IMG/VR virus record: IMGVR_UViG_3300002348_000001
Span: 19,979-83,978 of that record
Direction: 5' to 3' (one strand)
Length of the DNA stretch: 64,000 nucleotides
From: a virus
Taxonomy: Duplodnaviria > Heunggongvirae > Uroviricota > Caudoviricetes
Below, piece after piece: positions 19,778 to 44,496 of this stretch. Made by a program: the position numbers and the translations under genes. Below the pieces are notes generated by a model. That model had not been told where the DNA came from, searched no databases, and worked only from the letters and a program-made list of their open reading frames with translations. The first letter of the stretch is position 1; each line of letters begins with the position of its first letter.

Positions 19778-20707
19778 TTACCCATTTCTTCTCCAACCAT
19801 ATCTAGTCACCCTATTAGGTAACTCATACATATTGAATCTATTTAAATCTTGTTTTATTCTTCTCTGTTTAGCATAAACATCTTGCTTTTTTATTTCAAT
19901 ATCTGCCATTATAAATGCTTCATCAGACAGTTGTTTGTAATAAACAAGTTTAGATTGAATCTGTTGGAATGTTTCATCGGTTAACTGATTAGATAACATT
20001 TCAAACACTTTGTATTTAATAAAAGCCTCAACGTATTCTAATATACGATAGTTATCTGGAATCATTTGATTTCCATTATTATCATATTCTGTTGCATAAA
20101 ACAATAAATAAACTACACCATTTCTAAAATTGGTAACAAATTTGTTATCCCTAATATCAAACGAATCTGCAGAAGAAGCCCCAATATTTCTACAATCCAG
20201 AGAACAATGTTCTTTAACAGAGATATTTCCTGGTTTTAATAAATATTGTTTGTGGTAGGAAACAGCCACCTGATTATTTGTTTTGTATACAGCTTGAATT
20301 AATTCAGGCATGCACTCTCCTGTACAATCTTGATTATTACAATCAACATTTGTACAACCAGCTCCTCCGTGTGTAACAGGACTCACTTGAATAGTGGTTT
20401 GAGAAGCAGCTTGAGAATAGAATGAATTAGCTGATTGATAAGGGTAGCCAGGAATTTCTGTACATAACCAAGCTTCTCTAACAGCATAAAAATTATCAGG
20501 TAGTCTTGTCTCAAAATCATGTATATGTAATAGTTGAGGAGTTATTACATAAGTTGTTCTTCCTAATTTTCTTAGACATTTATCTAAATATGTAGGAAAT
20601 AAAAGATCATCTACAGCCCCAGTATCAAAATAACTTTTTAATTCCTCTTTTACAGTGGAATAAACAGATTCTGGAGATATAAAATTATATTTATAATAAT
20701 AAGACAT
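19778..20707 (-). CDS. Cys-rich structural protein (309 aa)
   Basis: ORF in the tail module with a Cys cluster (GGAGCTNVDCNNQDCTGECMPE). Confidence 0.7.
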   Translation of the reverse strand: MSYYYKYNFISPESVYSTVKEELKSYFDTGAVDDLLFPTYLDKCLRKLGRTTYVITPQLLHIHDFETRLPDNFYAVREAWLCTEIPGYPYQSANSFYSQAASQTTIQVSPVTHGGAGCTNVDCNNQDCTGECMPELIQAVYKTNNQVAVSYHKQYLLKPGNISVKEHCSLDCRNIGASSADSFDIRDNKFVTNFRNGVVYLLFYATEYDNNGNQMIPDNYRILEYVEAFIKYKVFEMLSNQLTDETFQQIQSKLVYYKQLSDEAFIMADIEIKKQDVYAKQRRIKQDLNRFNMYELPNRVTRYGWRRNG

Positions 20708-41589: not shown

Positions 41590-41600
41590 AGAAAATTGAA

Positions 41601-41632
41601 AGAAACGTGTAGAAATATACGTTTCTTTTTTT
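41601..41632 (+). terminator. Rho-independent terminator
   Basis: AGAAACGT-(10 nt loop)-ACGTTTCT followed by TTTTTTT. Confidence 0.65.
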
Positions 41633-41690: not shown

Positions 41691-42158
41691 TTGGCAAAAT
41701 ATAACACATTCATTAACAATCAAAAATTAAACAAAATGAGTAAAGAAACATTTTTTGCTGTAAGAAGCACAACAGAATCATGGCATTTATATAATGCTTT
41801 TGCAGAAGAATTAAAAGCTATTGGTTTTACAATAGCAGAACATTTCAATCCATTTAATGAAACATATTTTCAAAAATATAATTGTATTGGTATTTCTTCA
41901 GAATGGAATAGTGAATATTTTGGGCCTTCTTTTACATTTACTAGTAGTAGTGACTATTGTATTATATTAGAAAAAGAATGGGAATTAGCCATTGAAAAAG
42001 CTAAAGAATTTTATAAAAACCACTCAAAACCCACAATTAAACTAAATAGGGAATATACAGCTCTTATAGATTATAATAATGAAACTGTAGAAGTGGGGTG
42101 TCAATCATTTACATTTAATAAAATACATGAATTATTCACATTAATTATCAAAAAATAA
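41691..42158 (+). CDS. Hypothetical protein (155 aa)
   Basis: ORF; no recognisable motif. Confidence 0.55.
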   Translation: MAKYNTFINNQKLNKMSKETFFAVRSTTESWHLYNAFAEELKAIGFTIAEHFNPFNETYFQKYNCIGISSEWNSEYFGPSFTFTSSSDYCIILEKEWELAIEKAKEFYKNHSKPTIKLNREYTALIDYNNETVEVGCQSFTFNKIHELFTLIIKK

Positions 42159-42198
42159 AGAATTTAATTCCTATCTTTAAATTTTAAAATTATATTTT

Positions 42199-42471
42199 AT
42201 GTATGTATTAAAAAGTTATAGTGACAAATCACTAAAAAATGTAATATCAGATACAGAGTATTATAATCTTCCTTATTATAAAAAATTATCTTATGAAAAA
42301 AAAGAAGAGCGTGCTACAGAAGAGAACATAGTTAATGATATTATAGATATAGGAATTTCAACTCTTTCATTATTTAACACCAGTTCATCATCTGATAGTA
42401 GTGATTCATCTTCATTTGGTGGGTTTGATGGTGGTGATACAGGCGGTGGTGGAGCTGGTGGAGACTGGTAA
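42199..42471 (+). CDS. Hypothetical protein with Ser/Gly-rich C-terminus (90 aa)
   Basis: ORF ending SSSSDSSDSSSFGGFDGGDTGGGGAGGDW. Confidence 0.45.
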   Translation: MYVLKSYSDKSLKNVISDTEYYNLPYYKKLSYEKKEERATEENIVNDIIDIGISTLSLFNTSSSSDSSDSSSFGGFDGGDTGGGGAGGDW

Positions 42472-42479
42472 AAAGCTTT

Positions 42480-42972
42480 AAAACAACTAATGGTTAATAC
42501 TAGACAGTGACATAACAAGGGACGTGCGTAATCCTTCGCAAAAGGCCTACCCTCGCACATGTGTTACCTCACAGTCTAAGATGTGAGTGGTTTAGATTAA
42601 CTGCAAAGTCGACATTAAAATCAAGTTGGACAACTAAGGTTAAGCCAAAGATAACTTGTGTATCATTGCATCTCTTAGAAGGCATTAGTTGTTTTTACAC
42701 ACTCAAGTGGCGAAAAGTATAGACGCTAAACTAAGACGGTGAGAATGGAATGGGAAAAGGTTAAGATATACAAGTTGGGTAAACATCAGACACTTAACAC
42801 ATTCCAATAAAACTGATGAAAATAATGAGTCATGTCCTTGTTAAAAAGTGCCAACTAACATCAGTTATAATTCATGCAGGTGAAATCCCTGCCTTGAGTG
42901 CAAAATCCTGCTTACTTGAGGTGTTTACACCAATAATAGATAAGGTGGTTGACTGATGGAAAGACATCATAT
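42480..42972 (+). ncRNA. ORF-free, GC-elevated, highly self-complementary region; candidate structured non-coding RNA(s) or decayed tRNA-like elements
   Basis: No ORF of 60 aa or more on either strand except a low-complexity antisense one at the edge. Nested hairpins GTGCG..(CCTT-CGCAA-AAGG)..CGCAC, CTCACA-GTCTAAGA-TGTGAG, GGAATGG..GGTTAAG..CTTAAC..CATTCC, GCAGG-TGAAATC-CCTGC. A D-arm-like segment GTGGCGAAAAGTATAGACGC resembles that of the adjacent tRNA-like gene. Confidence 0.4.
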
Positions 42973-43075
42973 GGTCAGGTGGCGGAATTGGTGAGACGCT
43001 AAATATTTAGGGAAGTCATAGCTAAGTATTTAATATTGTGTACAAATAATACAGGTTCGAATCCTGTCCTGACTG
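42973..43075 (+). tRNA. tRNA-like gene, Leu-type (type II) D-arm, atypically long (103 nt) with an 11-bp hairpin inserted between D-arm and T-arm
   Basis: GGTCAGG-T-G-GCGGAATTGGTGAGACGC (near-identical to a bacterial tRNA-Leu D-arm). Canonical T-arm ACAGG-TTCGAAT-CCTGT. Acceptor 3' strand CCTGACT pairs with the 5' strand (G-U at 1:72). The 51-nt interval contains the hairpin TAAATATTTAG-(11 nt)-CTAAGTATTTA. A possible UAG anticodon loop (TTTAGGG) lacks a canonical stem. Confidence 0.5.
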
Positions 43076-43094
43076 CTTATTAAAAATAAATCGT

Positions 43095-43487
43095 ATGGAA
43101 ATAAAACCAAATTACGTAACATTTGAACAAGCTAAATTACTTAAAGAAAAAGGATTGGTTGTTAAATCAGATAGATATTGGGTTAAAATGACTGAAGATT
43201 CATATACTGATATGACTGATTGGCGATTAGAAGATTTGGATAGTGATATTGGGATTGGTGGCAATCTTGTAATTACCAAATATCAACAATGGCAAGTTGT
43301 GGAATTTTTAAGAATTAATTACGGTATTTGGGTTGGTGTTACAATGTATATTAATCATGATGGTAGATTTTATTCAGCCAATATTCAGAATAATGACAAT
43401 AAACATCAATCATTTAATGGACATAAATCACCACAAGAAGCATATTCAGCAGCATTTGATCATATATTAAATAATAATTTAATTTAA
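43095..43487 (+). CDS. Hypothetical protein (130 aa) located between the two tRNA-like genes
   Basis: ORF; no motif recognised. Confidence 0.55.
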   Translation: MEIKPNYVTFEQAKLLKEKGLVVKSDRYWVKMTEDSYTDMTDWRLEDLDSDIGIGGNLVITKYQQWQVVEFLRINYGIWVGVTMYINHDGRFYSANIQNNDNKHQSFNGHKSPQEAYSAAFDHILNNNLI

Positions 43488-43566
43488 AAACATTATTTGT
43501 TGTACACCATTAAAACGTTGGGTGATTAAATAATCTACGTCCAAAAGATAGCAACAAATATTTTAT

Positions 43567-43653
43567 TAGAGAGTGGTGAAATTGGTTAGACGCTATACTG
43601 TTGCCTTAAACAAGCTACGGTGAATTTTACAGGTTCGAATCCTGTCTCTCTAA
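43567..43653 (+). tRNA. tRNA-like gene (87 nt, type II-like length); anticodon arm not canonically foldable by hand (possible UAA loop CTTAAAC)
   Basis: TAGAGAG-T-G-GTGAAATTGGTTAGACGC D-arm, T-arm ACAGG-TTCGAAT-CCTGT identical to the other tRNA, acceptor 3' strand CTCTCTA complementary to the 5' end. Confidence 0.5.
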
Positions 43654-43677
43654 CTTTGTTAGTTTTAGTTTTAATAC

Positions 43678-43708
43678 GGGGGTGCATTTCTATGCTGCTC
43701 CCTTTTTT
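43678..43708 (+). terminator. Hairpin plus T-run after tRNA-like gene 2
   Basis: GGGGGTGCATTTCTATGCTGCTCCC imperfect hairpin followed by TTTTTT. Confidence 0.45.
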
Positions 43709-43766
43709 ATTATTAGGTAGCTTTAAGCATAATATATATTTATTAATTTAAAAAAAAACAAAAATC

Positions 43767-43982
43767 ATGTCAAAAAGTAAAAAAACCGTAACAATCACTG
43801 ATGTTAGAGAAGCTTGCCAAGATATTGGTGATAAATTAAAAGACAATTTTGACAAAACAAAAGATTTTAAAGCTGCTCAAGGATCTGTTCAAGCTTATTC
43901 AGCTGCTATTTCTGCAGCTAAAACACAGCTAATTTACAAAAAGCTCACAGGAACACCTATTGAAATTGAATTTCTTAAATAA
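43767..43982 (+). CDS. Hypothetical small protein (71 aa)
   Basis: Preceded by the CAAAAATCATGTCA motif variant. Confidence 0.5.
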   Translation: MSKSKKTVTITDVREACQDIGDKLKDNFDKTKDFKAAQGSVQAYSAAISAAKTQLIYKKLTGTPIEIEFLK

Positions 43983-43989
43983 TTAATTC

Positions 43990-44496
43990 ATGCCTACAAT
44001 AGATATTCCAGATAAGATATGTCCACATTGTGGTGGTACAAGATGGTGTGTTTCTGAACAAAAATATAAGGTAGTTTCTGGAGAAATTAGAGTTAAAAAA
44101 AACTATAGATGTTCTAAAAGAGGTATGGAAATTAGTGAGAAATATAGAAAAAATAATATAGAAAAATATAAAAAAAGCAGAAGAGAATATGTAAAATTAA
44201 AAAGAAAAATTGATCCTGTTTTTAGAGAGACAAAAATTAAAAGAGATAAACTATATTATAAAGAACATAAAAAAGAAATCCGAGAATATAGAAAAAAATG
44301 GACTATTGAAAATCTTGATAAAAATAGAGGTTATTCAAAAAAATATTCTAAAAAACAATCTGAAAAATTATCAGGATATTATGTTACTAAACTTTTAACT
44401 GCCAGATCAAATATTTTAAAAGAAGACATACCACAAGACCTTATTGAGCTTAAACGAAAACAATTATTATTAAAAAGACAATTAAATGATTTATGA
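43990..44496 (+). CDS. Zinc-ribbon protein with extremely basic K/R/E-rich repeat body (168 aa)
   Basis: CPHCGG...C...C N-terminal Zn-ribbon, then the KYRKNNIEKYKKSRREYVKLKRK...KEHKKEIREYRKKW charge-repeat region. Confidence 0.55.
   Translation: MPTIDIPDKICPHCGGTRWCVSEQKYKVVSGEIRVKKNYRCSKRGMEISEKYRKNNIEKYKKSRREYVKLKRKIDPVFRETKIKRDKLYYKEHKKEIREYRKKWTIENLDKNRGYSKKYSKKQSEKLSGYYVTKLLTARSNILKEDIPQDLIELKRKQLLLKRQLNDL

Follow-up and report, generated by a model that had tools for sequence, protein, structure and literature searches.

We describe here an array of non-coding RNA modules in the DNA of a crAss-like phage. The stretch analysed, called the window throughout, comprises 64,000 nucleotides (nt) of the IMG/VR virus record IMGVR_UViG_3300002348_000001 (positions 19,979 to 83,978 of that record), and coordinates are given in its own numbering. 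It is recognised as crAss-like by a Crass_capsid match (1.5e-28), a P22-like portal, a family A DNA polymerase and a DnaB-like helicase. With moderate confidence, we interpret positions 42480-43078 and 43567-43654 as a + strand array of non-coding RNA modules, in which a scaffold RNA is combined with tRNA-like carriers of variable payloads. Modules A, B, C and D follow one another in the same orientation, and E lies further on. Comparison with related loci shows module A to belong to a conserved family of predicted phage RNAs of 136-302 nt, and D, E and, in divergent form, B to be predicted phage tRNA-Leu-like RNAs in which hypervariable and mostly structured inserts take the place of the anticodon and variable arms. 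Both families are missing as families from Rfam 15, and our literature searches, by text and by sequence string and with subscription-only papers outside their reach, found neither described. The modules are as follows, with the evidence for each in brackets.

42482-42694 (+), 213 nt: module A, predicted RNA with helices P1-P5, a pseudoknot and variable domains V1 and V2 (homologue alignment, minimum free energy (MFE) fold)
42701-42900 (+): module B, divergent tRNA-like RNA (multi-arm cloverleaf in the MFE fold, D-arm pattern)
42901-42972 (+): module C, spacer with a terminal leader hairpin (motif count, resemblance to loci L068 and L169)
42973-43076 (+): module D, predicted member of the phage tRNA-Leu-like family (Rfam tRNA 39.8 bits, fold, 24-mer ACAGGTTCGARTCCTGTCCTGACT)
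43567-43654 (+): module E, third tRNA-like RNA, beyond the coordinates of the initial annotation (Rfam tRNA 34.2 bits, fold)

Results

The region consists of separate RNA modules

The initial annotation, made from the DNA letters, had taken 42480-43080 for a structured, G+C-rich stretch of about 490 base pairs (bp), free of open reading frames (ORFs) and fused to an atypical tRNA-like gene. Its view of coding content and composition stands. There is no ORF of 60 amino acids (aa) or more in 42472-43094, the longest between the stop of gene 42199-42471 and position 42972 being of 53 aa (42561-42722, GTG) and 46 aa (42816-42956), and G+C, taken over 200-nt windows, is 0.365-0.44 between 42400 and 43100 and 0.16-0.32 in the sequence on either side. 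A frameshifted protein-coding gene is ruled out by this ORF map together with the pattern of variation, as homologues differ by whole-domain swaps and paired compensatory changes and have no codon-like pattern.

All of the inverted repeats listed at the outset are present, and each maps to a helix. The GTGCG/CGCAC and CCTT/AAGG repeats lie within variable domain V1 of module A, and CTCACA-GTCTAAGA-TGTGAG is its conserved hairpin P4; GGAATGG/GGTTAAG...CTTAAC/CATTCC forms the first long arm of module B, and GCAGG-TGAAATC-CCTGC is the T-arm-like hairpin of the same module. The second D-arm copy is also real (GTGGCGAAAAGTATAGACGC at 42707-42726), and the window has three copies of the pattern GTGGYGRAA-N(2-12)-AGACGC, for which the expected number is 0.00. 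The suggested "one or more structured RNAs" resolve into three or more RNA modules, each of them conserved separately and supported by covariation. The picture of a single 490-bp RNA fused to a tRNA-like gene finds no support, the boundaries between modules lying at 42694/42701, 42900/42901 and 42972/42973.

A search with the 4227 families of Rfam 15 (gathering score over the window, E<=10 over 42000-44000) matched only tRNA, at 42973-43075 (39.8 bits, gathering score 29) and 43567-43653 (34.2 bits). The atypical tRNA-like gene is therefore confirmed at module D, which ARAGORN does not call; ARAGORN does call module E, and no other RNA family was recovered by either tool. Structure beyond random expectation was not found by folding energy, the MFE z-scores of the region being -1.19 on the + strand and -1.84 on the - strand. 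As folding energy alone fails to separate the region from shuffled sequence, the case for real structure rests on comparison. For this we used related viral and metagenome contigs (labelled L002, L068 and so on), whose loci total about 1.4 Mb.

Module A has a covarying core and two hypervariable domains

About 38 distinct homologues of module A were obtained through two independent DNA patterns. The first, built on the conserved hairpin CTCAYAGTCTAAGATGTGAG, found 10 viral and 33 metagenome contigs, and the second, taken from the 5' core without the hairpin, added five contigs whose hairpin stems are different. Module A had no Rfam 15 match at E<=10, and the same was true of two further homologues. 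Its elements follow one another as closing helix P1, P2, P3 (the base of V1), hairpin P4, P5 (the base of V2) and the 3' strand CUUAGAAGG, with these positions in the window:

42482-42492 (+): P1 5' strand AACAACTAATG, which pairs with 42683-42693 CATTAGTTGTT and closes module A
42493-42505 (+): P2 5' strand GTTAATaCTAGAC, which pairs with 42590-42601 GGTTTAGATTAAC
42507-42567 (+): P3 and variable domain V1 (GTGCG...CGCAC, CCTT-CGCAA-AAGG); the P3 base covaries in 5 of 8 pairs
42568-42587 (+): P4 hairpin CTCACA-GUCUAAGA-UGUGAG; compensatory changes in 3 of 6 pairs
42602-42671 (+): P5 and variable domain V2; double changes in 5 of the 5 P5 base pairs
42674-42679 (+): pseudoknot 3' strand CUUAGA, within conserved CUUAGAAGG; 99.5% of cells paired over 36 sequences

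In the core alignment (A2; 36 sequences, with the interiors of V1 and V2 masked), 93% of cells are paired, compared with 32-42% when the partners are slid. Double changes occur in 24 of the 48 pairs, at least one in every helix, and the observed values were reached by none of 500 shuffles. The window copy pairs at all 48 modelled positions, usual wobbles excepted, and its MFE fold recovers P1-P5. Six of the eleven P1 pairs carry compensatory changes, an example being the L082 variant ATAGTTTGGATCG/CGATACAAACTAT. The twelve pairs of P2 are paired in 97% of cells, with double changes in four of them, and the frequent G-U and U-G cells of the module, many of them in P2, establish that the + strand is the RNA strand. 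The P4 stem exists as CTCACA/TGTGAG, AACACA/TGTGTT and AACAAA/TTTGTT, the latter two in homologues fetched without P4. Its loop, UCUAAG (42575-42580), is complementary to 42674-42679, and this pseudoknot has a single compensatory change, in L186 (UAUAAG with CUUAUA), the rest of its support being conservation.

The two variable domains behave as exchangeable cassettes. Clustering of the domains from 38 homologues gives 34 clusters for V1 and 29 for V2, and in 10 pairs of homologues one variable domain is shared and the other is not. The close relative L002 is 84% identical to the window over module A and carries other sequence where the window has the GTGCG...CGCAC hairpin; the V2 cassette of the window is 97% identical to that of L002, while its V1 cassette is unrelated to L002 and 87.5% identical to that of L170. 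One V2 cassette type, present in five sequences from as many contigs, has six compensatory pairs, which argues that the variable domains are structured RNAs under selection and not filler.

A tRNA or tRNA-like RNA begins 1-9 nt after P1 in 15 of 34 copies (6 nt in the window), and several copies lie at most 10 nt 3' of a tRNA. The motif GTTCTTTGAAAATATTA(A) stands directly 5' of module A in L155, L156, L159, L164, L170, L175, L181, L182 and L183, and 5' of other non-coding modules in L068 (around 12200) and L016; it could serve as a promoter or mark a processing site. A good copy is missing from the window, where the two matches at two mismatches are not above chance. In a separate observation, the strings AAGGTTAAG and CAAGTTGG occur, in differing order, both in V2 of module A (42633-42665) and in the first long arm of module B (42757-42777). 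These could form a 12-bp pairing between A and B, which by a hand estimate is expected about 0.08 times by chance and may be a coincidence.

A family of tRNA-Leu-like RNAs carries unrelated inserts

The 24-mer ACAGGTTCGARTCCTGTCCTGACT, which spans the T-arm and 3' acceptor strand of module D, occurs in at least 120 IMG/VR contigs, some of which hold several copies (six within 5 kb in L016, four within 1.9 kb in L028). In 185,579 species genomes it has 16 matches, and isolate genomes account for none of them; all lie on contigs of metagenome-assembled genomes, of which many are Bacteroidota bins and several come from lakes. Short ORFs, in places with tRNAs, are seen in the flanks that were inspected, much as in the phage loci. 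No GenBank phage has both halves of the family, a consensus query returning generic T-arm and D-arm similarity to ordinary tRNAs. As homologues were collected by exact patterns, both the size of the family and its sequence invariance are affected by ascertainment.

The 175 distinct copies share (A/G)GTCAGG-TG-GCGGAAT(T)GGTAGACGC, an insert, and (T)ACAGGTTCGAATCCTGT-CCTGACT-A-C. They are 54-196 nt long, their middles are unrelated between copies, and the shortest, L046 (about 55 nt), has no insert arm. ARAGORN calls a tRNA in 36 of the 175, with anticodons that are scattered over many amino acids or are 2-4 nt long. The conserved positions are U-1 (83%), U8 (97%), A14 (90%), A15 (91%), U48 (83%), G18G19 (at least 74%), A73 (91%) and C74 (97%), and they correspond to the tRNA tertiary core plus the identity set of E. 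coli LeuRS. That enzyme recognises A73, A14, A15-U48, G18G19 and an intact D/T-loop interaction, and tRNA-Leu lacking the anticodon and variable arms is still active for leucylation (PMC9976931). The same phages hold ordinary tRNA-Leu(UAA/UAG) genes, with acceptor stems different from those of the family. In loci fetched via module A, independently of the tRNA-like family, the AGTCAGG acceptor accounts for about 15 of 22 non-canonical copies; a minority of acceptor stems are fully different and yet paired, including those of B (ACTCAAG/CTTGAGT) and E (TAGAGAG/CTCTCTA) in the window.

The inserts exceed the G+C of their own locus by 4 points on average, and their MFE z-scores have a mean of -0.64 (p=8e-12). 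The same types of insert turn up on different contigs, and in the type shared by L055, L076, L089 and L121 a U-A to C-G stem change was seen by eye.

The tRNA-like modules of the window

Module D has all four features of the family: a (A/G)GTCAGG/CCTGACT acceptor stem (here GGTCAGG/CCTGACT), a Leu-type D-arm (GGCGGAATTGGTGAGACGC), a canonical ACAGG-TTCGAAT-CCTGT T-arm and a non-tRNA insert. Its discriminator is G73. In place of the anticodon arm it carries an arm of 11 bp closed by an 11-nt loop and, after this, a short additional hairpin, and the Rfam alignment places 17 extra nt in the anticodon region. Modules E and B share the family features with covarying acceptor stems, B with an altered T-loop. 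Module E combines the acceptor TAGAGAG/CTCTCTA and A73 with D- and T-arms as in D and an 8-bp arm with a 9-nt loop; its anticodon arm is mispaired in the Rfam tRNA alignment, and the ARAGORN call "Ser(act)", with an anticodon at position 31, is not credible. The anticodon arm of a functional decoder (5-bp stem, 7-nt loop, U33 and a purine at 37) is lacking in B, D and E. With respect to the Leu identity set, E has A73, D has G73, and B has G73 and lacks the GG.

Module B is the most altered. Its 7-bp acceptor stem pairs ACTCAAG (42701-42707) with CTTGAGT (42893-42899), followed by discriminator G42900, and it has a Leu-type D-arm (42708-42726) without the GG of a normal D-loop. Two arms of about 60 nt, at about 42746-42806 and at 42811-42866, replace the anticodon and variable arms, and the T-arm-like hairpin GCAGG-UGAAAUC-CCUGC occupies 42876-42892. 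The D-loop reads GU for G18G19 and the T-loop GA for U55 C56, so that B may keep the 19-56 pair as U-A. Rfam tRNA does not match B at E<=10, and ARAGORN misses it as well. At the same position, L002 has the acceptor strand and D-arm of module B and a different insert, homologous to that of L026 (AGTCAGG type); as the two relatives share the frame and differ in the insert, the insert has been swapped between them. The trailer CAAAATCCTGCTTA after module B is the trailer after the L068 family member, which places the 3' end of B at 42900. The hairpin GCAGG-UGAAAYC-CCUGC (5 bp, 7-nt loop, T-loop-like UGAAA) was also seen in V1 of L154 and L174, and a partial repeat of it, AAAATCCTGC, lies at 42901-42912, just after module B.

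Module C ends in a leader hairpin, composed of TTGAC (42949-42953), TGATG (42954-42958), GAAAGA (42959-42964), CATCA (42965-42969) and TAT. Its consensus is TTGAC(A/G), a 5-bp stem with a GAAAGA loop, the other strand and AAYAT. A first, strict regular expression gave two copies; the relaxed pattern N4-GGAAAGAC-N4' with a paired stem gives 24 in the approximately 1.4 Mb of loci, against about one in shuffles, and the stems covary. Copies include 42949-42972 of the window, L068 (13738), L006, L037, L082 (4513), L127, L152 and L156, and 19 of the 24 lie 3-6 nt 5' of a tRNA-like RNA. The covarying stem favours an RNA element over a reading of TTGACA as a -35 box. The UGAC of the hairpin could pair with GUCA in the 5' acceptor strand to give an alternative structure.

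Genomic context

The flanking ORFs at 41691-42158, 42199-42471 and 43095-43487 are probably co-transcribed with the array, judging from two terminator-like hairpins that bracket them. One, at 41598-41629, lies 5' of the flanking genes and was found by a consensus terminator scan. The other, missing from the list of that scan, is likely to end the transcription unit:

43678-43708 (+): terminator-like hairpin followed by UUUUUUA (MFE -15.3 kcal/mol, z-score -2.49)

A sigma-70 promoter scan gave no more matches than chance. The neighbouring ORFs encode 90-168 aa, and those scanned gave weak PHROG matches to families of unknown function or to a Lar-like protein; Pfam covered few of them. The Lar-like match (restriction alleviation, phrog_599, E=2.8e-4) belongs to the 168-aa ORF at 43990-44496, just 3' of the array; it hints at an anti-defence neighbourhood and is too weak to rely on. 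Upstream, the 90-aa ORF at 42199-42471 (+) has a C-terminal Gly-rich tail, GGFDGGDTGGGGAGGDW, that is also kept in L002, and neither PHROGs nor the adjoining ORFs suggest a function for it. An antisense ORF that the initial annotation had placed at the edge is of 89 aa (42291-42560, - strand), lies mostly beneath this gene and is its low-complexity shadow.

Homologues of the flanking proteins were also used as guides to related loci. In L003 and L004 the ORFs are densely packed, with no RNA-sized gap 3' of the matched gene, and L001 has a single tRNA-like RNA. No GenBank phage matches the region or the 14 kb surrounding it. According to ARAGORN, the window has no canonical tRNA, so that its 64,000 positions hold three tRNA-like RNAs and zero canonical tRNAs; the related contig L082 has about 30 tRNAs and a tmRNA beside the same RNA families.

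Other non-coding motifs recur in these loci. The motif GTGTTGTTCCCTTGAGAAAGGAA...ACAACACAGAGGACTTCTCAYCCTC, whose ends are seemingly complementary, occurs at L068 12232-12350, L082 11823-11910 and L064 around 430-560, as well as 3' of module A in L175, L181 and L182, and was unmatched at the Rfam gathering score in the loci scanned. Two further blocks, AATTGTACCCTCATAGCATAACTTAAACCCATAAGGTTATGAGG and CTGTACCCTTGAAAAACTCGTATTTAAAGATAAGCAGGTTAGCTC, recur in L143, L151 and L173 (3' of module A), L068 (13520), L064 (around 300) and L144. The tRNA islands of these phages thus seem to hold several undescribed RNA motifs.

Discussion

We propose that the array would be transcribed jointly with the flanking small genes and that host RNase P would cut the 5' end of each tRNA-like module, the cut at module B at the same time delimiting module A on its 3' side. 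Completion of the 3' ends would fall to the tRNA 3'-processing enzymes and the CCA-adding enzyme. The tRNA-like half would act as a natural tRNA scaffold that secures processing and nuclease resistance and, in copies with A73, possibly leucylation, and the variable domains would be the working payload, with a binding partner from the host or the phage. The choice of a Leu-type body agrees with a scaffold that could be charged whatever its insert. The hyperdiversity of the payloads and their exchange between close relatives suggest a role in phage-host or phage-phage conflict. It is tempting to speculate further that the arrangement is a natural RNA display, in which a chargeable tRNA-Leu-like half and module A present swappable cassettes that work as aptamers or decoys on factors of the host, for instance its defence proteins, are released by host tRNA processing and are shuffled through the scaffold ends, in uncultured and apparently mostly freshwater phages. 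We put this more specific version forward as a tentative idea that may well prove wrong.

Several of our results weigh against the proposal of a scaffold with payload-bearing carriers. The acceptor and T-stem alignment was chosen for pairing, so that its covariation test is partly circular, and variation in P4 and the pseudoknot of module A is confined to few sequences. Single modules have weak MFE z-scores (-0.7 to -2.2), and by our own count the insert of module D has a roughly genome-like, low G+C. No recurrent partner protein was found near the family, the top neighbour clusters (DUF932, terminase, metallophosphoesterase) reaching at most 15 of 120 loci and Pfam giving no confirmation of a guessed GIY-YIG nuclease among the neighbours, and nowhere else in the window is there a complement to the array of at least 14 nt that would suggest an antisense target. 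Module B has no full-length homologue in the related loci and has lost G18G19 and the T-loop UUC; it may be a divergent member that still functions or one in decay. Leucylation cannot be general or essential, as B and D have G73 and E. coli LeuRS needs A73. Finally, RNase P cleavage and 3' processing are predicted from the tRNA-like shape, U-1, A73 and C74.

Other explanations have to be considered beside it. The tRNA-like modules could be processing punctuation only, which would cut a polycistronic transcript, trim the mRNAs and release module A, with inserts that are neutral filler. Such a role would account for the position of the copies close to genes (about 30% have a same-strand ORF start within 30 nt downstream and about 28% a stop within 30 nt upstream), for conservation limited to the parts that processing enzymes recognise, for L046, which at 55 nt does without an insert arm, and for the roughly genome-like, low G+C of the module D insert. 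We nevertheless consider it unlikely, since the inserts are on average G+C-enriched and more structured than shuffles, recur as types across contigs with the U-A to C-G stem change noted above, and reach 150 nt or more, which would be costly as filler; conservation of A14, A15-U48, G18G19 and A73 is likewise unexplained by processing alone. The conserved 25-nt ends could instead be recombination or homing sites that move cassettes at the DNA level, the RNA shape being incidental. Cassettes are indeed exchanged between close relatives at conserved boundaries, and the 5' acceptor strand is nearly invariant, with the 3' strand tolerating changes that keep wobble pairing. However, tolerance of G-U wobbles is an RNA-level signature. 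The tertiary positions U8, A14, A15 and U48 have no obvious role in DNA, module A shows the same cassette behaviour with a core backed by RNA covariation, and no recombinase or nuclease recurs in the neighbourhoods. An explanation at the DNA level is on these grounds improbable.

The initial annotation had also raised a decayed tRNA array. The first half of this idea holds, as B, D and E are tRNA-derived in shape; the second does not. A functionless array of tRNA-Leu pseudogenes would be in line with the lost G18G19 and T-loop UUC of module B, with the inability of B, D and E to decode, and with inserts that in these three have no homologue in the 1.4 Mb of related loci. It would not explain why the tRNA-like half is kept in at least 120 phage contigs while only the anticodon/variable-arm region is replaced, why helices covary and the leader hairpin is co-conserved, or why ordinary tRNA-Leu genes with other acceptor stems exist in the same phages, and we judge decay to be slightly less probable again. 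Functional but unusual tRNAs (suppressors, frameshifters, or intron-containing genes spliced to normal tRNAs) are very improbable. Stop-codon recoding is known in crAss-like phages, the Rfam tRNA scores exceed the gathering score, and a few copies have near-normal loops, such as the 95-nt copy of L016 (8-nt loop, CAA) and the copy in L019/L022 (CUC). Against this, 139 of the 175 copies have no detectable anticodon arm, the called anticodons spread over many amino acids on one Leu-type body, and the inserts have no conserved exon-like anticodon stem and no group I intron match at E<=10. Still less do we favour a single large RNA across the 490 bp, whether ornate in the manner of GOLLD and ROOL or a group I intron. 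The size of the region and its position next to tRNA-like genes are similar, GOLLD and ROOL being often near tRNA islands (PMC12286853), yet among the 4227 Rfam families only tRNA matched at E<=10, and A, B, C and D are found independently and in other orders among homologues.

The preferred reading, a module A scaffold with tRNA-like carriers, can be set against known systems. Like bacterial type II tRNA-Leu, the family has a 7-bp acceptor, a 5-bp T-stem, a UUCGAAU loop and the D-arm GCGGAAU(U)GGUAGACGC, and it keeps U8 as well as A14, A15-U48, G18G19 and A73, which are identity elements of E. coli LeuRS (PMC9976931). It differs from tRNA-Leu in having 10 to more than 150 nt of unrelated sequence instead of a conserved anticodon arm, in its first pair A1-U72, in an acceptor stem unlike that of the phages' own tRNA-Leu, and, for B and D of the window, in G73. 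The design is that of the engineered tRNA scaffold of Ponchon and Dardel, which keeps the acceptor stem and the T- and D-arms and uses the anticodon stem-loop as insertion site, for recognition by cellular processing factors and protection from nucleases (PMC3753655). Unlike that man-made scaffold, the phage family is natural and multi-copy, and its inserts would be a payload by analogy. [quoted passage not shown] Y RNAs, however, adjoin Ro60/Rsr and carry a Ro60-binding stem, whereas the ends of the phage RNA sit in the acceptor stem; no Y RNA was matched by Rfam at E<=10 over 42000-44000, and there is no ORF of more than 170 aa between 41.1 and 47.6 kb.

Similarly, tmRNA has a tRNA-like acceptor/T domain and a large structured insertion in the place of the anticodon arm. 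The phage family differs in having no tag reading frame, in being Leu-type and not Ala-type (no G3-U70) and in its full D-stem, and neither ARAGORN nor Rfam found a tmRNA in the window, although the same tools detected a real one in L082. Module A resembles ROOL and GOLLD, phage structured RNAs often located near tRNA islands (PMC12286853), in being defined by covariation alone. It is much smaller (136-302 nt) and consists of a core of five helices, one pseudoknot and two hypervariable domains, and searches for GOLLD (RF01998) and ROOL (RF03087) over the window (gathering score) and over 42000-44000 (E<=10) gave no match. A group I intron in a tRNA gene finds no parallel either, as Intron_gpI was unmatched at E<=10 and no conserved anticodon-stem sequences flank the inserts. 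The TMERs of murine gammaherpesvirus 68 are non-decoding tRNA-like units that pass cargo hairpins to host tRNA-processing enzymes; they belong to a eukaryotic virus, and their cargo lies 3' of the tRNA-like unit, unlike that of the phage family, which replaces the anticodon arm.

For genome annotation, these elements are a trap, as they score as "tRNA" in Rfam and are missed or misnamed by ARAGORN. If our reading is true, two RNA families missing from Rfam 15 are encoded by phages of a common uncultured group, and one of the two would be a natural counterpart of the engineered tRNA scaffold, present in at least 120 viral contigs and often in several copies. Phages would then use the tRNA fold as a carrier of other RNAs, beyond decoding, and RNA biology would gain naturally selected scaffolds together with an extensive collection of structured cassettes. 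By their hypervariability, the cassettes point to a layer of RNA, as yet unexplored, in the conflict between phages and their hosts.

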